Assembly: GCA_964016885.1 (NCBI GenBank)
Contig: OZ024741.1
Coordinates: forward strand, 335,978,001-336,042,000
Length of the DNA stretch: 64,000 nucleotides
Source of the DNA: Eledone cirrhosa
Lineage: Eukaryota
Direction: 5' to 3'
Shown in pieces: positions 860 through 46,336 of the stretch. Made by a program: the position numbers and the translations under genes. The notes beneath the pieces are model-generated. The model was given only the letters and a program-made list of their open reading frames with translations. It was not told the origin of the DNA and searched no databases. The first letter of the stretch is position 1. Every line of letters begins with the position of its first letter.

Positions 860-3297
860 AAGCTAACCTGCTGAAGGCAACAGATGAAATCTGTGGCTGG
901 AGCAGACCTATAGGGAGGAGGAGAGTAACTTGGTGGTGGAACAGTAAGGTGGAGGAGTCAATCAAGGCCAAAAAGCAGACTTGGAAAGAGAGAAGTAGAG
1001 AAGACTATCAAGTGCCCAGGAGGGAAGCTAGAAGACAAGTGTACTTCGCAAGAAGGGAAGGAGAGGAAAGAAAGTTCAAGCATGTGCGACAACGTGAGGA
1101 CCAAAAATGTGAGGTGTTCAGGATTGCTAGGCAATGTGTCACAGAAAACCGTGATATTGTCGGGGAGAAGTGTGTCCGTAATGATGATGATGTACTTGCC
1201 ATCACTGACGCTGATAAGAAGGTAGCTTGGAAGTGTCGCTATGAGAGGCTACTAAATGAGGAGAATAAGTGGGAAAAAGATAGTCTGTCCCAAATCAATC
1301 CAATAGAGGGACCAGCAGTGCAGGTTGAAGGTAGTATAATAAGTAAGGCGATCAAAGATATGAAGGCAGGCAAGGCGGCTGGGCCTTCGGAGATAGTTGC
1401 TGAAATGCTGAAAGCATCTGAGAGCATATGGTCACAGGATAGTAAACCAAGTCATATAGAATAGGGTCATACCAAAGAACTGGCGTAGCAGCATCATCAT
1501 TAACTGCTACAAGGGTAAAAGAGATGCCCTAGATAGGGGAAACTATAGAGGCATTAAATTAATTGACCAGGTCATAGAGGTCACATAAAAAGTTATTGCG
1601 CAACTAATCAGAGAGCGAATTGATCTAGATGAAATGCAGTTTGGATTTGTGTCAGGTAGAAGTACCACAGACGCTCTTTTCATTGTACGACAACTACAGG
1701 AGAAGTACCTAGCTAAAAGTAAACCCCTATACTTAGCTTTTGTTGACTTGGAAAAAGCCTTTGACAGAGTCCCCCGCTCCATTATCTGGTGGGCTCTCAG
1801 AAAACTAGGTGTTGATGAATGGCTTGTGAGAGCTATACAAGCCATGTATAACGAAACAGTCAGCAAGGTTAGAATTAACAACGAATATAGTGAAGAGTTT
1901 AGCATAAAAGTTGGTGCTCATCAGGGATCTGTCCTTAGCCCCCTCCTATTTATTATTGCCATTCAGGCTATAACAGAGGAGTTCAAGACCGGCTGCCCAT
2001 GGGAACTTCTCTATGCAGATGATCTAACGCTCATAGCTGAATCTATGGCTGAACTAGAGAAGAAATTCCAAACATGGAAGCATGTCCTAGAATCAAAAGG
2101 CCTTAAAATTAACTTGTCTAAGACTAAAGTTCTAGTATGTAGGAAGGAAAATAGAGCACTGGTCCCCTCTGGGAAATGGCCATGCTCAGTGTGTAGGAAA
2201 GGAGTAGGCAAAAACTCCATTTTATGTCCCAAATGCAAAGTATGGGTGCATAAAAGATGTAGTGGGATCACAGGTAAGCTAACTAAGAGCATAGATTTTA
2301 TATGTAGCAAGTGCCCACAGGATACTAGCTCCTTCCATTTCCCAGATGGTTCTATAGAAATAGTGGACACCTTCCGTTACCTGGGTGACAAAATCAGCAG
2401 TGGTGGAGGGTGCTCTGAAAGTACAGTAGCTAGAGTCAGAACAGGATGGAAAAAGTTCAGAGAGCTTATACCACTATTGGCCACTAAAGGTTTCTCTCTA
2501 AAAATGAAAGGCAGACTGTATGATGCCTGCATACTAACAGCAATGTTACATGGCAGTGAGACATGGGCATTGTGTGCAGAGGATCTATGCAGACTGGAGA
2601 GGAACGAAGCTTGCATGCTCCGTTGGATGTGTAATAGTAATATACGTGAACGACAAAGCATAAATGAACTAAGTGAGAAATTAGGAATAAGAAGGATCAG
2701 ATGCTGTTTACTCGAGAGAAGACTACGTTGGTATGGTCACGTGATGCGCATGAAAGACGACAGCCGTTTAAAAAAGTGCAGGCGATCAAAATAGATGGTA
2801 GCTATGGAGTAGGCAGACCCAGAAACACCTGGGACGATTTGATAAATTCCAACCTTACACACTTACACCTCTCCAAGACAATGTCACTGGATTGAGATCT
2901 TTGGCACTATGCAGTAATACAGAAGTCTTGCCTTGCCTAAGTACAAAGCAAAACCTACAGTCAGTAGGCACCTCTTAACCAAAAATACACCCCCATCCCA
3001 CTATCCCTACTCCCACCCCCATCTACACCACTCCTTTCAATGTAAAGTTATGTTGGTACCACAACATCCAGTCCTAAATAAATGAGGTCGTGTAGGTGTC
3101 ACGACAAAAAAAACACACAGTCCCCCCTCCCAGTCCACACTGTAAACGTGGTTGGTGTTAGGAAGGGCATCCAGCCATAGAAAGTCTGCCAAACAGTCCT
3201 ATACGAGCAAGACAACCAATCTTGCCTCAAGTGGGACAATTCCCGTCTAAACCCATGCTAGCGTGGAAGATAGACGTTAAACGATGATGATGATGAT
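860..3297 (+). mobile_element. RTE-clade LINE, 5'-truncated and frameshifted (family A)
   Basis: ORFs 949-1464 (KAAGPSEIVAEMLK) and 1634-2794 (QFGF, AFVDLEKAFDRV, HQGSVLSP, LYADD, LRWYGHVMRM), then GRPRNTW, a 3' UTR and a (GAT)n tail near 3283-3297. Confidence 0.95.
1634..2794 (+). CDS. LINE reverse transcriptase fragment with embedded PHD-type zinc finger
   Basis: 386-aa ORF with RT motifs and a C4HC3 pattern (CSVC...CPKC...H..C...CSKC). Confidence 0.9.
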   Translation: MQFGFVSGRSTTDALFIVRQLQEKYLAKSKPLYLAFVDLEKAFDRVPRSIIWWALRKLGVDEWLVRAIQAMYNETVSKVRINNEYSEEFSIKVGAHQGSVLSPLLFIIAIQAITEEFKTGCPWELLYADDLTLIAESMAELEKKFQTWKHVLESKGLKINLSKTKVLVCRKENRALVPSGKWPCSVCRKGVGKNSILCPKCKVWVHKRCSGITGKLTKSIDFICSKCPQDTSSFHFPDGSIEIVDTFRYLGDKISSGGGCSESTVARVRTGWKKFRELIPLLATKGFSLKMKGRLYDACILTAMLHGSETWALCAEDLCRLERNEACMLRWMCNSNIRERQSINELSEKLGIRRIRCCLLERRLRWYGHVMRMKDDSRLKKCRRSK

Positions 3298-3337
3298 ATA
3301 TACGTATATGCATACATACACACACACATGCATAAAT

Positions 3338-3374
<37 letters not shown>

Positions 3375-4060
3375 AACACACACGCTTCTCATTGCTAGCA
3401 CACAAAACCATAGAACTGGGTGTAAGATAGCAAAAGAAATAAATAACAGTTTTTTTTTTAGCTGCACATGTGGTTCAATTTTATATTTCTCCAATACAGA
3501 AGCTAATCTCTAAAAACAATCTAGGTTCCTTGTTGTTATTTAGACAAGCAACGATAACTTTTATTCAGACCCTGATGCTGCTTAACATTAAAGGGCCACC
3601 ATACATAAGAATTCTCTAGATGAATTTTTTAAAAAAATATCAGAACCAATTCTAATGGGTATTAGATCGACATGCTTCTTGAGAGATGTGAGATGTTATC
3701 ATAGATGCTGATGTAGAAAATATATGACCGATCAAGAAATGTAGATTTAAAAAAAAATTGATGCTAATGATAACATACATGTAACAGGCTGGTATGATAT
3801 GGTATGATACATACCATCATGCTGTGGCCTGTTCCTGGAGATTCTGTTGATAACATTGTAGTTATTTTGTTGTTTATTTGTGTTGACACTTTGGAATGTT
3901 TGCCATGATTTAAAGTCATCTCTGCAGTAAATTATAGAATATAACTGAATCAGTGTTATATATATATATATATATAACACTGTATATGTAAATATTGTTT
4001 AGCAATTGCATCAACATGGCAACAATTAGCCAGCTAGAGTTCTCCCTGTATATGGGAGAC

Positions 4061-4103
<43 letters not shown>

Positions 4104-4107
4104 CATA

Positions 4108-4143
<36 letters not shown>

Positions 4144-5053
4144 ACAGTAACATGTAGATAGATAGATTTTTGTTTGTGTGTGTATGTGTGTGTGTGCCAC
4201 ATATTGCCACATATCAATGCTCATACATACGTACCTAGAGGCTATATTATGGTTTTGATAATAAATATATTTTGTCATTGTCTTTATTCAATTATATGGC
4301 ACTTTATTTCTTCTTGCTTGTCTCTCTCTCTCTAACAAAGGACATGTCTATCTATTGGTTTATTAAACCAAACCAGCCAGCCAGCCATCCTTCTAACTAT
4401 ATATATATATGTGTTTGTGTGTGAGTATTCTTATAAATGCATATATATATGTAAAAAGTTCATAGGCTGACCAAGATACTCTCATGGAATGACCAAATTA
4501 GGTTTATTTCCTAGAAAGAAACAATACAGTTATTATGAGTTGAAATTAATGCATGCAAAATTTCACAGCACTAGTATCATTACTTCATTGTCAGCCTACC
4601 CTCATATATGTATCAATGGAGAAATCCCAAAAGTAAGTACATGACTAACTGAACATCGTAAAAGTTTTGTTGCTTACTGCTTTCACACAAAAGATTTCAG
4701 TTTCAGATCTTTTGTTGTGGGTGATCTTCTCTATCAGAAAGCTCAGATACCAGAGTACCTTAGCAAGAGACACAAATGATGAGGAAGACCTACAAACCTT
4801 GATGAGGAACAAAGATTTTTGGTGTGAAATTGTGCTTTCTTTCTCATCTAAGAGTGATGGATAAGATAAGATATATCAATGAAGAATACCACCTCATATA
4901 TTTGTACGCTATTCTGTTTTTTTTTTATTTCTCAACATTCTCTCCAATTGAGAATAACCCAGCCTTCGACACAGAAATAAGACGTTTTCATTGGAATTTA
5001 TACAGTGTCAACTAGTACTCGTGTATAAGCATTAATGTATATTAATGTATAGA

Positions 5054-5241
5054 GTGGTGGATTGGCAGTACCGGTAGAGGGTCGGACGCCATGCTTTGAT
5101 GCATAGAGTTACGGCCCTTGCCATTCTGAGTTCAAATCCCGCCGAGGTTAACTTTGCCTTTCATCCTTACGGGGTCGATAAAATAAAGTACCAGTAATGA
5201 ACTGGGTAATTGCTGGCCTTGTGCCAAAAGTAGAAACAATT
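5054..5241 (+). mobile_element. tRNA-derived SINE with Nin/Deu-like central domain
   Basis: A-box TGGCAGTACCGG, B-box GTTCAAATCC, core GCCTTTCATCCTTACGGGGTCGATAAAATAAAGTACCAGT; ATTAATGTAT on both flanks is a candidate TSD. More than 10 related copies lie in the window. Confidence 0.85.
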
Positions 5242-19249: not shown

Positions 19250-20970
19250 TACATTGTAGAGCTAGCCTAGAGTGCTAAATACCTAGTCACACAATATAGA
19301 GCCATCCTAGAGTGCTACATCCTCAGTCACACATTGTAGAGCCAGCCTAGAGTGCTACCTACCCAGGTAAACAGTATAGAGCTAGCCTAGAGTGCTACCT
19401 ACCCAGGTACACATTGTAGAGCTAGCCTAGAGTGCTACCTACCCAGGTACACAGTATAGAGCTAGCTTAGAGTGCTACCTACCCAGGTACACATTGTAGA
19501 GCTAGCCTAGAGTGCTACCTCCCCAGGTAAACAGTATTGAGCTAGCCTAGAGTGCTACCTCTCCAGGTACACAGTATAGAGCTAGCCTAGAGTGCTACCT
19601 ACACAGGTACACATTGTAGAGCTAGCCTAGAGTGCTACCTACCCAGGTAAACAGTATAGAGCTAGCCTAGAGTGCTACCTCCCCAGGTACACAGTATAGA
19701 GCTAGCCTAGAGTGCTACCTACACAGGTACACATTGTAGAGCTAGCCTAGAGTGCTACCTACCCAGGTAAACAGTATAGAGCTAGCCTAGAGTGCTACCT
19801 CTCCAGGTACACAGTATAGAGCTAGCCTAGAGTGCTACCTACACAGGTACACATTGTAGAGCTAGCCTAGAGTGCTACCTACCCAGGTACACAGTATAGA
19901 GCTAGCCTAGAGTGCTACCTCCCCAGGTACACAGTATAGAGCTAGCCTAGAGTGCTACCTACCCAGGTACACATTGTAGAGCTAGCCTAGAGTGCTACCT
20001 ACCCAGGTAAACAGTATAGAGCTAGCCTAGAGTGATACCTCCCCAGGTACACAGTATAGAGCTAGCCTAGAGTGCTACCTACACAGGTACACATTGTAGA
20101 GCTAGCCTAGAGTGCTACCTTTCCAGGTACACAGTATAGAGCTAGCCTAGAGTGCTACCTTTCCAGGCACACAGTATAGAGCTAGCCTAGAGTGCTACCT
20201 ACCCAGGTAAACAGTATAGAGCTAGCCTAGAGTGCTACCTACCCAGGTACACAGTATAGAGCTAGCCTAGAGTGCTACCTCCCCAGGTACACAGTATAGA
20301 GCTAGCCTAGAGTGCTACCTCTCCAGGTACACAGTATAGAGCTAGCCTAGAGTGCTACCTACCCAGGTAAACAGTATAGAGCTAGCCTAGAGTGCTACCT
20401 ACCCAGGTACACAGTATAGAGCTAGCCTAGAGTGCTACCTCCCCAGGTACACAGTATAGAGCTAGCCTAGAGTGCTACCTCTCCAGGTACACAGTATAGA
20501 GCTAGCCTAGAGTGCTACCTACCCAGGTAAACAGTATAGAGCTAGCCTAGAGTGCTACCTACCCAGGTACACAGTATAGAGCTAGCCTAGAGTGCTACCT
20601 CCCCAGGTACACAGTATAGAGCTAGCCTAGAGTGCTACCTCTCCAGGTACACAGTATAGAGCTAGCCTAGAGTGCTACCTACCCAGGTACACATTGTAGA
20701 GCTAGCCTAGAGTGCTACCTCCCCAGGTACACAGTATAGAGTCAGCTTAGAGTGCTAAATGCCTTGGTACATATTGTCGAGCTTGCCTAGAATACTAAAT
20801 TCTCAGGCGCAGATGGTAAAGCTAGCCTAGAGTGCCGAATATCTAAGCACCCCGTGTAGAGATAGCCTAGGGTGCCAAATACTTAGGCCCACATTGTAGA
20901 GTTAGCCTAGGGCACTAAATACCCAGGAACACATTGTAAAACTAACCAGAGTGCTAAATACTGAGGTACT
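19250..20970. repeat. 40-bp satellite (GCTAGCCTAGAGTGCTACCTACCCAGGTACACAGTATAGA)n, about 42 units
   Basis: Exact 40-bp period, homogeneous centre, degenerate edges. Confidence 0.97.
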
Positions 20971-41232: not shown

Positions 41233-42669
41233 AATATATATATAGGAATTGTTTTAAATGGATGGTTTTCTTTCATAGAACCAGGGATGATTTTGACATG
41301 ATTGATTTTGTTTGATAAAACCAGGGTTTGTTTTAGTTGGGTTCATAACAAAAGGGTTAAGAAACAAGTATCTTTTTTGTTATTCTTCATATGACCAATG
41401 AAAAACATTTATTTTATTCTATATTAACCCTTTAGCATTTAAACTGGCTGTATCCAGCCAGAATTCTCTCACCTCTTTCTTTTCAAACTGGCCATAACTA
41501 GCCACTCATACTGATTTTAAGGTATTGTTCTCAAAATAAAAAACATCAAAATCTCATAGATATTGTGAAATAATTGTGTGAGGTAAAACCTTTACAGTGA
41601 AAATACAATAATAAATATAGAGTAAAGGTTAAGTAATTAAAACATAGGCTGTGTTTCCTAGTCTTGTATAGTCATGGTTTCATTTCCTATTCATCCTAAC
41701 CCACAAGACAGAAAAAAAACATTTCCAATCTGGCTTGCCTCCCAAAAGCATTAACTAACCCTTCTCTGATATCTTTCAATTAATTACAATCTCCAGATTT
41801 CATATCTCTCTTCTATGGTGATATTAACTGATTTATATAGTGGCTGTTGAGTATATTTATTTACAACACTTATTCTAGGTAATTCATATTTGGCAGTTTT
41901 TCTTCCATTGTCATTTTCGTGTTATTTTGATGGATACTAACAGTTGGAAATGAAGCTTTTGAGGGTTGGCAGGGGGTAGGTGGGCTGGGATCAGAGGGTT
42001 AGAATTAAATCATTTGTGAGGACATCACTTCTGACATTTGTGGTACACATGCTTCATAGCATGACCCCATTAATCTCACACTATGACATTTCTCATAAAC
42101 CCTCAAACAGCAGGTATTTGGTTTTATTGCTGTTTGTTATTAGTGGTGGTCATGGTTGATGGGATTGTATGGCGTTGGGTTTGTTTTAAGTTGGTTTTAT
42201 TTGTGTTTGTTTATCTGTCTGTCTCAATTTCATTGATTCTCATCACATTCTGTTATTTGTTACTGTAAGCTCTCTCTCTCTCTCTGAGAGTTGGGACCTC
42301 TGTCCATTCTGACCATGAGAAATTCTTCTAATTGCTTGATCACTGTAACAGCACGCTTGTGAAATTAACGTCCAAGTGGCTGAGCATTCTACATACACGT
42401 GTCCCTTAACGTAGTCTCCAGGGAGCTTCAGCATGAAACAGTGTGTGACAAGGCTGACCTTTTGAATTATAGGTAAAACTAATTTTTTGCCAGCTGAGTC
42501 AACTGGAACAATCTGAAATAAAGTATGTTGCCCAAAGCTAGGAATTGAACTCATATGCCAGTTACCTTCACTGTAAACTCTACTATATTTTGTTCTTAAG
42601 CATGACATGAAAGATATCACATGATTGTTACTATACAGGGTGTTTCAAATAATTTGATATCAATAGCCT

Positions 42670-42982
42670 TAAAGGAAAAGAATGTTTGTCGATGAATGGA
42701 CAATACATCGTTTCTCTTTGTATGAATAAATGACTCCAGAAAGGGGGTGAACAATCAAAATTAACGATCCTTTATTAAATACATTTAATAAATTACCTAC
42801 AACCAAAACAGTGTAATATATTCTACGGTGCAGGAATAAGCGAATCCTTTCTCGTCTGTTCGTGTCCGCGGTTCGTGAGAAAGCTCCTGGTGTGTGACCG
42901 GATGTATCTTGCCCCCCGCTCTCTGAAAGATCATTAATGGGAGGCAACTGCTAGTTGCTAAGCGACCATCTCAGTCACTACA
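42670..42982 (-). repeat. 3' LTR (313 bp)
   Basis: Minus strand TGTAGTGACTGAG...TTTTCCTTTA; aligns to 45950-46293; preceded by a weak PPT-like GAGGTGAA. Confidence 0.95.
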
Positions 42983-43099
42983 TTCACCTCGGAGCAGATT
43001 TTTTGTCGAAAAATCGTTAACGATGAAGCGAAGGACCCACAAGGTAGTTAACAAAATGTAGAAGCATGTATCAACAAATTATGAAAGAGAAAAAAAAAA

Positions 43100-44180
43100 A
43101 TAGGTTCATGCCTGCAAGTTTGGTGTCTGCAACAGTCGCCTCTTCTGCTAATACTTCATCTGGAACAAAGTGGTGTTTGTATGATTTGGACCGGAAGGCG
43201 ACTCTGAAAGCAAGCGCATCCATGATTGCGCCTTCCACATGTCCTGGCTCTATGTTCTGAATGAACCGTTTGTCTTTGTCTAGACACCCTATCATACCAA
43301 AGAAAGTGTGCAAGTACGGGTTTGACCCTGCGGAAAATACACATTTGTTAATTAGTCCCAGGGACTTTTGGTAAGGGAAAATCCCTGTATCTGATGCTCC
43401 TGCGCTTAAGGATTTCAGCACTCTCATGGTCTCATTGACTCCAGCTTCATTGACCACCAAACAAACCAAATCAGTTATGGTTAGATTGAGCGTGTCTCTG
43501 AAGTGGTCAAGGACTTCTATGATATGGTCCCCCTTCTCAACAGCGATAGATCATGAGTGTTATAATTATAAAGGAAATAATCTATCGCTGCCATCACTTG
43601 GAAAACTTGATCGTTCCTGACTATATGGCTCAGGGCACCGTTGAGGAGCATGTCCTGATCGTATCTGTATGGGTGCGTCATACGATGATTATTGAAGGCC
43701 TTGATGTTTTGCTTATAATCCCCCACTTCCAGACCGGTGGCCGCATTCTCCACCTTGTAAAGAGTGACTATATACATTAGCCCGTGGTGGTGATTTTGGG
43801 TAGAGGTTGTTGCGGTTGGTTTGGGGAAGCTGGCATCTTCGGTGATGTTGAAAAAATCAGCAGGGGTAACTGACTCTTTCTGTCTGATAAAGTCATAGTT
43901 TTGGAGATCAGTATTTATGTCAAATTTAAGGTAGGACTGGCAGTATTTGATCATGAAATGTAGGACGTTTCGGGAGGATCTCCTGAGTGTTGGCTTTTGT
44001 CAAAATAAAATCATGTGCTGCTTTGACATCCCCTTCATAGAAAATGGTTATCTGTTGGGGCTGGAACAATTCAGAGCTGAAGACATCGAAGTCTTTAGTT
44101 GTTTTGCTGAGACTGAATTCCAGCTTCTCGCGACCAGATGCGGTTACCGCCCGCACAGTAGAGTTGGTAGAACTTGACAT
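43100..44180 (-). pseudogene. Endogenous rhabdovirus-like (Mononegavirales) nucleoprotein N, two frameshifts, probably 3'-truncated
   Basis: ORFs 43926-44180, 43517-43954 and 43071-43469 join into about 360 aa. NDQVFQVMAAIDYFLYNYNTHDLSLLRRGTIS, EVLDHFRDTLNLTITDLVCLVVNEAGVNETMRVL and IFPYQKSLGLINKCVFSAGSNPYLHTFFGMIG align in order with vesiculovirus N as recalled (NDSNYTKIVAAVDMFF...H...RYGTI; ATFGHLCKITGMSTEDVTTWILNREVADEMVQM; YMPYLIDFGLSSKSPYSSVKNPAFHFWG). Confidence 0.85.
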
Positions 44181-44224
44181 GATGTTTCAAAGGATTATAC
44201 AGCAAACAGTAAAAAACAATAAAT

Positions 44225-44703
44225 CCGAGTTAGTAATTCGTAACTTTCCCTGCGTCAACTGAGGGAATGAATGTAACAGGCTTTGATACTGGTTGCCCAC
44301 TTCAGCCAAGAAAAAGGAAGGGCTGTTTCAGCATCAAAAAGGCGTTGTCTGCGGATGTCTACCGACAAGGAAAAATGGTGTAGAAAATCCGCTCCCAAAA
44401 ATGGCGGATGGCAAGTCGGCGATAGTAAACTTCCACTTCAATTCACGACGCAAATTTTTTTAACCGAAGAGGAAGCGAAATTTGCCCGTACGTTCGAATG
44501 GCCGTGTGGTTGACTGCTCGTAAATTTATATTTGATTCAGATGGGGTTTTTTTGAGATAACTGACTGGCCAAATACTCAGCGACGCGCCAGTATCGACAA
44601 GGAAAAATTTTTTCGACCGCAGGTCGTATACGAAAAGATGGCGGTTCGGTCGATTTTCCCAGAGTTCACTAACCGCCCCTAGTGGCTCTGCTTTGCGTTT
44701 TCC
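44225..44703 (-). pseudogene. Retrotransposon aspartic protease (start of pol, truncated before RT)
   Basis: LFVYDLRSKKFFLVDTGASLSIWP (DTG at 44587-44595), LRAVNHTAIRTYG, WKFTIADL, ILGADFL-like motif across frameshifts; GGAAAAC candidate gag-pol slippery site near 44697-44703. Confidence 0.9.
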
Positions 44704-45484
44704 GATCTCTTGTAATTACAGGGCGTGCGACAACGTTGTGCCCTACTGCCGAAGTTAGCATGATACCAACAAAACGAGAATTATTGTTGTCTGCGTTGTA
44801 GTGCTGGCGATGAATAGAAGACAGCGGCGAACGGTACTCGTAGCGGTTTCGAGGAATAGCAGACGGAGGCGAACGGTACCTCAAACGTTGAGAAGGCTCC
44901 CTGTGTTGTACGGTCAAATCCTCCACTTTTTGGGTGAGCGCATCGATCATCTCCAACAGTTTGCTGTCGGCCACAGAAGAAGAAGCCACACAAGGATTAT
45001 GCCGACTGCTGTTAGAGTCCACCTCTAGTATTCTATCCGCGGTTGCGGCAAGTTGATCTAACGATTAGCTCTCCAAATTATTGACCAAGACCATTTGCGC
45101 ACTTGGCGGCAAACGAGAGAAAAATAGTTGTTTGAGGAATGGGGTGTCCATCCCCTGGGAGTCGCTCAACTCCCGCAGATGTCGCAAATAGGAGCTTGGC
45201 GTCCTGTCACCCATTTGCGCATCATCTAACAATTCCCGAAAACGACTTTCCGCTCACTTGGTATTCCTCCGAATAATTTCCCCTTTCAACGAGCCATAAG
45301 TAACGTCTGCGGCTAAATTGGTCACCACATCCTTCACGGAAGATGCCAACGACACAGGCAAGCCACTAACTAGTACCTTCAGTGTATGCTGTTCTTTGGT
45401 TTTGGTTAAATCAAAATAGCATTCAAGCTGCAAAAACCATAATTTGATGTCGCCTGCGAAGGACGGCAAATGATGTGGATTCAT
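44679..45484 (-). pseudogene. gag: gag of CsRn1/Kabuki-type gypsy element
   Basis: LPSFAGDIKLWFLQLECYF...RFRELLDDAQMGDRTPSSYLRHLREL...LDQLAATADRI...CWYHANFGSRAQRCRTPC (C-X2-H-X9-C-X3-C); two in-frame stops and one frameshift. Confidence 0.9.
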
Positions 45485-45930
45485 GATTGCCGAAGAATCT
45501 CCCAGGACGAACTATGTCTTTGAAGCAGCCACTCGACCAAAAGGCCACACTGGAACTCCGAAATCCGTTCACGCGAATTCAATCGAAATCAGTCGAAGAA
45601 TCCAAGATGGCCGGTTGAGAAAAGGTGAAGACGCCGTCACGTGGCACGATGTAGCCAATCAGATTGCTTGGATTGAAGGAGATACACTGTGCGCGGGAAA
45701 ACCGCACAAGGAAGAAGACACGCAGAATAGCGGGAAAATGTCGGCCATTTAAAAAATTATCATGAGGAAATGACGGTGAAAAATCCGGAAAGAAAAAAAA
45801 ATGTTTACAGTGTGAACAGCGAACAGAGTTTAGAAATCATCTAATTTTTTTTTTGGAAAAGGTTTGGATTCAAACCAAAGAAAAATAAAAAAAAATTTTT
45901 TTCTTTTTTTTTAGTATCCGCGTATTGGAA

Positions 45931-45948
45931 TCACGTCGTCGGTCACCA
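45931..45948 (-). promoter_or_regulatory. Primer-binding site complementary to the tRNA-Trp 3' end
   Basis: TGGTGACCGACGACGTGA(TTC) lies 1 nt inside the 5' LTR; the animal tRNA-Trp 3' end is ...GAATCACGTCGGGGTCACCA (near match). Confidence 0.85.
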
Positions 45949-45949
45949 A

Positions 45950-46293
45950 TAAAGGAAAAGAATGTTTGTCGATGAATGGACAATACATCGTTTCTCTTTG
46001 TATGAATAAATGACTCCAGAATGGGGGTGAACAATAAAAAATTAACGATCCTTTATTAAATACGACATTTAATAAATTACCTACAACGTCAATTTAAACA
46101 TACCTTGTGGGTTAATAAAAAAGTGTAATATATTCTCCGGTGCAGGAATAAGCGAATCCTTTCTCGTCTGTTCGTGTCCGCGGTTCATGAGAAAGCTCCT
46201 GGTGTGTGACCGGATGATCTTGAACCCCGCTCTCTGAAAGATCATTAAGGGGAGGCAACTGCTAGTTGCTAAGCGACCATCTCAGTCACTGCA
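45950..46293 (-). repeat. 5' LTR (344 bp)
   Basis: Matches the 3' LTR apart from about 8-9 substitutions, small indels and a ~30-bp extra segment near 46088-46122. Confidence 0.95.
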
Positions 46294-46336
46294 GCCTGTT
46301 CCAAGGTTGTCACATGAAAATATATATTGTCAATTA

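Follow-up and report, generated by a model that had tools for sequence, protein, structure and literature searches.

A rhabdovirus nucleoprotein segment in place of about 2.9 kb of pol in a CsRn1-type gypsy element of Eledone cirrhosa

The 64,000-nucleotide stretch of Eledone cirrhosa DNA analysed here (the window) carries on its minus strand a 3.6-kb CsRn1-type gypsy element (42666..46297) with two LTRs, a 4-bp TSD, a tRNA-Trp PBS, a CHCC gag and a protease, in which ~2.9 kb of pol has been swapped for 1.1 kb of a rhabdovirus nucleoprotein (N) gene. Very probably, this chimera arose when RT switched template onto viral N mRNA and back, after which the product was integrated as a unit by a helper integrase. 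Taken by itself, the window copy is no more than a dead fossil, gag and N both being broken; more interesting is the genome-wide pattern, in which it is one of about ten captures recording how RNA viruses become inherited DNA. The route by which non-retroviral RNA viruses reach germline DNA usually has to be reconstructed from decayed clusters; several captures in this genome still come with parent families, joins and TSDs, so that the template (mRNA or genome), the RT strand and the part played by microhomology become readable and testable. The mechanism is already known from mosquitoes, mouse and nematode, and we found no report in the literature of such captures in a cephalopod genome.

Table 1. 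Features of the chimeric element, in window coordinates.
Feature	Position	Strand	Remarks
TSD, upstream copy	46294..46297	.	GCCT on +
5' LTR, 344 bp	45950..46293	-	ends TGCAGT...CCTTTA; family ends TGTAGT...CCTTTA
PBS, tRNA-Trp	45929..45948	-	two changes vs perfect complement; host tRNA-Trp(CCA) genes compared
gag	44718..45484	-	ATG 45484; broken by stops and a frameshift
gag motif C-X2-H-X9-C-X3-C	44771-44718	-	residues CWYHANFGSRAQRCRTPC
Aspartic protease (LVDTGAS) and start of protease-RT linker	44232..44715	-	broken; tblastn with family pol
5' junction	44223..44231	-	viral gene-start-like 9-mer overlapping 6-7 of 9 element match
Rhabdovirus N mRNA segment, sense	43119..44231	-	~50 nt 5' UTR; ATG 44180; coding part split into three frame pieces; lacks N 3' end
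3' junction microhomology	43111..43118	-	6-7 of 8
Retrotransposon 3' UTR with family purine-rich tract before LTR	42983..43118	-	83-96% identity to relatives' same part
3' LTR, 313 bp	42670..42982	-	
TSD, downstream copy	42666..42669	.	GCCT on +

On the minus strand the element reads AGGC, 5' LTR, PBS, gag, protease, N-like segment, 3' LTR, AGGC, the order and flanking GCCT duplication (plus strand) that the initial annotation had described. Over 312 aligned bases the two LTRs show 10 substitutions, and a further 4 indels separate them. The gag product matches DUF7041 in Pfam (E 6.3e-9) and is 90% identical to one family gag over residues 1-245, and the protease of a relative gives an RVP match just under the cut-off (E 0.00057). 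The family PBS is the complement of the 3' ends of host tRNA-Trp(CCA), for which nine genes were found in two arrays (ARAGORN, run on the first four pattern loci, found no tRNA), and the window PBS, initially called tRNA-Trp, is indeed complementary to it save for two changes. Because a pol ORF from the family matches the whole 64 kb at 44665-44223 only, RT, RNase H and integrase are absent from the window copy, as had been noted from the outset. Judged by its tRNA-Trp PBS, CX2HX9CX3C gag, LTRs with a 4-bp TSD, and the PR-RT-RH-IN order of its parent family (the window copy being without RT-RH-IN), the element has the CsRn1-type features first recognised in its PBS and gag. TSDs of 4 bp are also found at a solo LTR and at a sibling chimera of the same family. 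The published CsRn1 clade shares the PBS, gag motif and TSD length, with parents of 5.3-5.9 kb, and differs in that viral cargo is not described in the available text of that source (PMC2582038); our assignment is by the features listed above.

Pfam, PDB and fold evidence confirm that the 1.1-kb segment is a rhabdovirus N. The initial annotation had proposed comparing it with the Rhabdo_ncap profile and with the N structures of VSV and rabies virus, and both comparisons bear out the identity. The profile (PF00945) matches two of the three N-like frame pieces, one just over the cut-off of 26 bits (26.6 bits, E 3.5e-6) and one below it (17.8 bits, E 0.0017), the first piece giving no match; a sibling N with 94% identity scores 81.2 bits. 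In a PDB sequence search the last window piece found SVCV N (E 0.004) and the middle piece nothing credible. A fold model of a sibling N copy (pLDDT 89.6) is predicted to have the two-lobed helical fold of VSV and rabies N, with VSV, lyssavirus and SVCV N at ranks 1-38 among the matches listed (query TM 0.67-0.77); it was built on an alignment of 132 N-like rows and thus leans toward the N fold, and a single-sequence model was useless (pLDDT 39). Initially described as a gene from ATG 44180, the viral part begins at 44231, ~50 nt upstream of that codon, and ends at 43119, ~60 codons before the N stop seen in sibling copies, while 43118-42983 proved to be retrotransposon 3' UTR.

Named viral N proteins are 23-28% identical to the N of the captured lineage, and an L piece from another locus reaches at most 52% identity to a named virus; neither close identity to, nor a clade with, a described rhabdovirus was found for this N. 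In a quick tree the octopod N rows form their own long branch (N clade SH-aLRT 99), and in the same clade, at 43-60% identity, are UniRef100_A0A0L8FVJ3 from Octopus bimaculoides and GAB1603531.1 and GAB1610042.1 from Argonauta hians, all of them automatic annotations only. A word-index protein search with the sibling N gave no match among 2774 candidates; a full HMMER scan found matches. This animal's germline appears to have been reached repeatedly by a rhabdovirus lineage that has no close named relative, and rhabdovirus reads in cephalopod transcriptomes should be treated with caution, as they may be partly endogenous.

Homology to the parent family ends at 44223 in 25 of the 29 fetched gag/protease relatives and at 44224-44235 in the other four; 27 of the 29 run on into RT, and none into N (40 of 400 gag candidates were scored, and all N candidates, 7/7 DNA and 21/21 protein). 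The genome also contains full-length relatives that retain RT, RNase H and integrase, supporting the existence of an autonomous helper family, the partner in trans that had been postulated. The first letters of the viral segment, AACTCGGATTT, resemble the AACTC(G/A)ATTT that two related copies have after the A-run + CT of a gene junction; a third related copy has AACACGGATTT at its N start, again resembling the viral start in the window. An A-run followed by CT is the gene junction pattern of rhabdoviruses. The segment thus looks as though it starts at a viral gene-start signal, an assignment that leans on related viruses (~66-75% alike) and on this junction pattern, and 44231 is presumably the mRNA start. 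The first nine viral nucleotides match the parent at seven positions in five of the six rows listed, a level reached at only 5 of the 5799 positions of one full parent; the closest relative (C3 copy) matches at just six of nine. At the 3' join, the 8-mer matches the subfamily sibling L010 at 7/8 and seven other parent rows at 6/8 or lower. Microhomology joins are also produced by DNA break repair. Neither an inner TSD nor poly(A), which the initial annotation had named as signs of a later independent insertion, was found at the N segment. The single outer TSD, together with microhomology at both joins, argues for a template-switch origin and integration as a unit, as first proposed.

Both joins are spanned by short-read contigs, at 43857-44265 (5') and 43060-43206 (3'). 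Read-contig depths were ~5-9 on window-specific pieces and 11-12 on the L010 join; such a difference could reflect a hemizygous insertion, but we make no such claim, these being summed values that are unreliable. No empty site was seen, the chosen flank itself being a high-copy repeat and RAD reads barely informative at the ends. Reads of two other samples bearing the same species label contain N-type sequence, none of it tied to the window copy and one matching the C4 sibling; no RNA run is listed for the locus, a result that is uninformative on expression.

The genome contains ten N loci of the same virus lineage (7 DNA matches; 21 protein matches at 10 places), nine of them joined to LTR-element sequence, as is the largest L piece, and an L gene is located in the closest relative of the window element. 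The window copy is probably an LTR-made nrEVE, with virus joined directly to element inside integrase-made ends. Seven of the nine oriented N loci are antisense to their element, whereas the window N is sense. In several of the antisense copies the 5' LTR is truncated, pointing to plus-strand capture; three siblings truncated in this way carry clean 4-bp TSDs and were therefore integrated already chimeric. Window N and siblings are separated by 42 synonymous and 13 non-synonymous differences (dN/dS 0.07, within an overall range of 0.04-0.07; neutrality test p below 1e-13, despite the frameshifts in the window copy). This divergence is virus-like and, because it lies mostly at synonymous sites, the sibling N copies are separate captures. 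ADAR-type A>G hypermutation was not seen among the private changes. Two chimeric copies have both joins in common but their own TSDs; CpG decay accounts for just 6 of the 31 differences between L008 and L009.

Under the template-switch origin, an active CsRn1-type gypsy family in a rhabdovirus-infected germline cell would have packaged viral N mRNA together with element RNA in one of its particles. In making the minus strand, RT would first have copied the 3' LTR and 3' UTR of the element, moved to the N mRNA through a short microhomology, run to the mRNA 5' end and returned to the element RNA at the protease-RT linker, losing pol and gaining N. Plus-strand synthesis would, as normal, have restored two LTRs, integrase supplied in the particle would have inserted the product with its 4-bp TSD, and the copy would have decayed afterwards. 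We infer the germline infection, the co-packaging and the identity of the switching strand. Copy-choice virus-LTR hybrids have been demonstrated experimentally in mosquito cells, but according to the conclusion of the same report homology does not drive virus-LTR recombination in mosquitoes, which counts against microhomology-led switching here (PMC6797480).

Alternatively, a complete integrated element may have been broken later and patched by viral cDNA through microhomology-mediated repair, deleting pol. This too would fit the microhomology seen at the two joins and a segment ending at the mRNA start, and the LTR divergence of the window element, 3.2%, is slightly above the 1.9% and 2.0% of two ordinary LTR pairs. 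We nevertheless consider such a patch quite unlikely, because break repair should show no preference for LTR elements, whereas nearly all the viral loci are joined to them and the window itself is mostly LINE, SINE and simple repeat; the siblings that integrated already chimeric also speak against it. The window has many LINE RT fragments, as might suit an independent LINE-made retrocopy of N that landed inside the element, but this highly improbable reading is refuted by the junction sequences, where poly(A), an inner TSD and the N 3' end are all missing and 2.9 kb of pol is gone exactly between the joins. An assembly chimera or viral-read contamination is scarcely conceivable: though the only public runs with the stretch come from one sample, possibly the assembly's own, the contig is 416 Mb long, the TSD is matched, the frames are decayed and both joins are bridged by read contigs.

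The initial annotation also suggested a mobile carrier, in which case the window chimera would be a non-autonomous family spreading N through the genome. Both LTRs, the PBS and the purine tract are kept, so copying in trans would be possible, and two other chimeras occur twice each (L008/L009 and L012/L013). The window joins, however, were found once, at one of the ten N loci and in 0/29 gag relatives, and gag and N are broken; for this assembly the suggestion is largely refuted, and we regard it as very unlikely.

A protein function of the window N is excluded by its frameshifts. Retention of the copy as a source of antiviral piRNA would be compatible with the template-switch origin and seems doubtful to us: in Aedes, antisense piRNAs that come from EVEs act to restrict virus (PMC6797480), and somatic piRNAs are described as numerous in molluscs, where a clear siRNA pathway is lacking (PMC12479628), but the window N is sense to the element's promoter, with no sign of a same-strand LTR cluster within the window. 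A bolder reading, which we offer as unlikely, is that CsRn1-type LTR families are a recurring recorder of one rhabdovirus lineage, with either RT strand capturing mRNA and with antisense cassettes that are updatable and piRNA-supplying. Minus-strand capture would then yield sense cargo with both LTRs, as in the window, and plus-strand strong-stop DNA priming on mRNA would yield antisense cargo preceded by a 5' LTR that is truncated and lacks the PBS. Antisense cassettes could be re-copied in trans and brought up to date when RT switched, at homologous sequence, to more recent viral RNA; this would account for two insertions with shared joins, separate TSDs and virus-like synonymous differences. 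If true, the cassettes would supply antisense piRNA in animals without a clear siRNA pathway and form an updatable, heritable antiviral record.

RT-made chimeras of an LTR element and negative-strand virus RNA are reportedly known from mouse as IAP-LCMV recombinants, said to have been described by Geuking in 2009; these were somatic and experimental, with no fixed germline insertion. In the nematode Bursaphelenchus xylophilus, eBxnv-1 is a nodavirus RdRp inside a Bel/Pao element, for which RT copy-choice was proposed; like the window copy, it occurs once and consists of a gene from a non-retroviral RNA virus enclosed by two LTRs, with PBS and PPT present (PMC5177903). Our case differs in its negative-strand virus N and gypsy CsRn1-type host, in the replacement of pol with gag kept, and in that both joins and the TSD are resolved against living parent copies, with about ten sibling captures (PMC5177903). 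Anakin, a Pao element with a chuvirus glycoprotein, likewise has a Mononegavirales-like gene inside LTR boundaries, but it keeps pol and amplified one capture, whereas pol is gone from the window element, which shows no amplification (PMC7642597); several insertions with the same joins were not found for the window chimera and were found, at two sites each, for two others. In Aedes, nrEVEs from the N, G and L genes of rhabdoviruses occur in linkage with Ty3/gypsy, LTR and gag sequences flank a CFAV fragment, and a complete Pao element contains one bunyavirus piece; near-identical unlinked copies are left unexplained in these accounts (10.1101/127498, PMC6797480, PMC5497376). There, 543 of 614 nearest LTR elements have the same polarity as the EVE, in contrast to the mostly antisense N loci here, and the EVEs pile up in piRNA clusters, whereas the N loci of E. 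cirrhosa are dispersed, several of them as discrete TSD-bounded insertions (10.1101/127498, PMC6797480, PMC5497376).

The window copy is a real, dead, single-copy capture. Every part of the minus-strand order claimed in the initial annotation (LTR, tRNA-Trp PBS, CHCC-type gag, protease, N, LTR) was located, including the flanking duplication, and stops or frameshifts break gag, protease and N alike. The PBS of the family is complementary to host tRNA-Trp(CCA) genes; with the gag motif, it matches the CsRn1 features listed in PMC2582038, as had been proposed. Over 312 bases the two LTRs show 10 substitutions, plus 4 indels, versus 1.9% and 2.0% for two ordinary LTR pairs of the same genome, suggesting from sequence divergence that the insertion is young, about as old as its relatives. 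Stretches L180 and L181, on C4 elsewhere in the assembly, carry tandem arrays of genes for the tRNA that primes these elements, tRNA-Trp, with dozens of pattern matches.

Features of the window element, the N loci and the closest relative. L-handles are other stretches fetched from the same genome, with positions within the stretch; C-handles are places elsewhere in the assembly; LTR-B is a second LTR family, distinct from that of the window.
Feature	Location	Orientation	Setting	Flanking duplication
LTR, upstream	window 46293-45950	minus
PBS, gag, protease, foreign segment, 3' UTR (in that order)	window, between LTRs	minus
gag CX2HX9CX3C motif	window 44771-44718	minus
LTR, downstream	window 42982-42670	minus
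Window N	window	sense	both LTRs	AGGC at both element ends (minus-strand reading)
N	L011	sense	behind LTR-like end and Trp PBS; spans near gene start to A-run
N	L010:3617-5821	antisense	window's LTR family; full 3' LTR	CGCT
N	L008:4689-7074	antisense	LTR-B; 5' LTR cut at nt 132	TATA
N	L009:4434-6257	antisense	LTR-B; 5' LTR cut at nt 132	GAAC
N	L086	antisense	between repeats starting TGTAG, with purine tract
Five tandem 1.8-kb units, part of N each	C28 (L152:1716-8000 + L084:1-5340)	antisense	LTR-B internal sequence
N and next viral gene	L012:3561-5957; L013:3582-6797 (two loci)	antisense	short element's internal sequence
Short N piece	C25
Closest relative of window element (91%)	C3 (L089:130-8668 + L150:4998-10000)

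The cargo is a rhabdovirus N. Two of the three window N pieces match the Pfam Rhabdo_ncap profile (E 0.0017 and 3.5e-6), and a sibling N on C4, 94% identical in DNA to the window N, scores 81.2 bits against the profile and E 4e-9 against VSV N. The predicted fold of this sibling (pLDDT 89.6, with a 132-row alignment as input) likewise points to N, as VSV, lyssavirus and SVCV N fill ranks 1-38 among the Foldseek matches listed. The nearest database proteins belong to Octopus bimaculoides and Argonauta hians, at 43-60% identity, whereas the N of named viruses reaches only 23-28%. These hits, together with a SINE motif, suggest an octopod host. Among the 41 rows of a quick, unrooted tree (6 of them this genome's and 35 taken from 150 database hits, the rest omitted), the genome's rows, the octopod rows and one unnamed row formed one clade (SH-aLRT 99), on a long stem that carries a long-branch warning. 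Sequence of N type corresponding to window:43828-44065 also occurs in RAD reads of two other samples under the same species label, one loose end of which matches the C4 sibling.

Relatives of the element allow the joins to be placed. Scoring 40 of 400 candidates gave at least 54 matches to the gag-protease part. The genome also has full parents of ~5.3-5.9 kb, complete with RT, RNase H and integrase, which could supply the autonomous partner in trans that had been postulated. Homology to the window stops at 44223 in 25 of 29 fetched relatives and at 44224-44235 in the other four; 27 run on into RT, and none of the 29 has N downstream of gag-protease. Compared with one full parent, ~2.9 kb (positions 2283-5217) has been swapped for 1.1 kb of virus. 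The closest relative, at C3, shares the altered PBS of the window copy and has an open 901-codon RT-RH-IN frame; its 3' UTR is joined to ~5 kb of antisense, broken sequence of the rhabdovirus L gene, including a repeated inner piece, and no 3' LTR was found in the L089/L150 stretches.

The viral part begins AACTCGGATTT at 44231. Ahead of the next gene, two related copies have an A-run, CT, then AACTC(G/A)ATTT; the N start of a third carries AACACGGATTT. We take this pattern to resemble rhabdovirus gene ends and starts; on this likeness, the 5' join probably sits at the start of the N mRNA. There the parent matches the viral 9 letters at 7/9 in five of six printed rows (7/9 is reached at 5 of 5799 parent positions), and the closest relative at 6/9. 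The viral 8-mer at the 3' join agrees with the subfamily sibling L010 at 7/8 letters and with seven other parent rows at 6/8 or fewer. Some 60 N codons are missing. Neither join has a poly(A) or inner TSD, the signs set beforehand as marking a later independent insertion, and both are bridged by short-read contigs of one sample, possibly the assembly's own.

A protein search of the genome with N returned 21 matches at 10 places, nine of them joined to LTR-element sequence (two sense, seven antisense); no LTR link was seen at C25, and no 3' LTR was found at L011. In L010 the 5' LTR breaks off at nt 180, its T-run joined there to the A-run of the viral gene end. A 2.2-kb stretch (96%) is common to L012 and L013 and contains N, a gene junction and the viral gene that follows; L012 has a 102-bp direct repeat on either side in place of a 4-bp TSD. 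The C28 array adjoins another, separate member of the family to which the window element belongs. LTR-B at L159:1086-3425 is non-coding (~2.3 kb, 400-bp LTRs, Trp-type PBS), starts TGTAGTGAC as does the autonomous family, and is abundant (2046 first-look candidates, 40 scored).

Sense cargo between both LTRs, joined at the mRNA start, fits a minus-strand double switch onto mRNA, and antisense cargo behind a correctly begun, early-ended 5' LTR fits plus-strand strong-stop DNA switching onto mRNA, with which the T-run/A-run join of L010 agrees well. Sense viral RNA would be the template in both routes, and the two-gene copies would need a read-through or full-length template. Antisense products could instead arise from a minus strand copying the viral genome strand, which would give the same outcome. 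The joins and the lack of inner TSD or poly(A) fit the template switching and unit integration originally proposed; all switching steps are ones we infer.

Between window and L008, N shows 42 synonymous differences in 199 sites and 13 non-synonymous in 722 (dN/dS 0.07); the ratio is 0.07 for window against L010 and 0.04 for L008 against L010. Such low values, though the window copy is frameshifted, indicate divergence in replicating virus, not fossil copying; judged by substitution pattern, the N copies are separate captures, not one fossil recopied. A weak mosaic sign at window:43119-44180 has the first part nearer L008/L009 and the later part more L010-like (2 of 300 permutations, lenient as the grid is coarser than the observed value). 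The likeness of L008 and L009 is harder to place. They lie on different chromosomes with separate 4-bp TSDs, yet have the same truncated 5' LTR and both joins in common, and both lack a PBS. Even so, of the 31 differences between their N sequences 17 are synonymous (against a neutral share of at most 27%, p ~0.001), transitions are about as many as transversions, and no substitution falls within 365 nt across one join, a feature noticed after the fact. The pair could stem from a hot spot captured more than once, from copies re-mobilised in trans and then refreshed, or from gene conversion.

Rhabdoviruses in cephalopod metatranscriptomes are the subject of Rey-Campos 2023, which could bear on novelty. 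The initial annotation knew of no LTR-borne N in a cephalopod, and we found no report of LTR-borne rhabdovirus EVEs there in the openly accessible literature searched, PMC12548735 included. The mechanism is not new: published cases are an RNA-virus gene within a nematode LTR element (PMC5177903); in Aedes, hybrids of virus and LTR sequence, rhabdovirus EVEs linked to gypsy and an EVE flanked by LTR and gag (10.1101/127498, PMC6797480, PMC5497376); and an amplified Pao-chuvirus hybrid in mosquitoes (PMC7642597). The host group is probably new, and the window capture offers unusually legible joins and an informative sibling set. In Aedes, EVEs have the same polarity as the LTR element closest to them in 543 of 614 cases (10.1101/127498, PMC6797480, PMC5497376), whereas ours are mostly antisense, a comparison that is not like for like, as the Aedes figures concern neighbouring elements and the Eledone loci are direct joins.

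Stretches L167, L087, L088, L153, L155 and L156 comprise a weak rhabdovirus glycoprotein match (E 0.006), two Rhabdo_ncap matches of another lineage and three further L places; L156 appears scrambled. No LTR link was seen for the two N matches or for two of the L places, and the third L place is near a diverged LTR-B element. No host gene was recognised among the ORFs scanned, a subset of those in window 1-64000. Outside the element, the window consists of SINEs, pieces of LINE RT and tandem repeats, such as a 40-bp unit repeated 37 times at 19257-20757.
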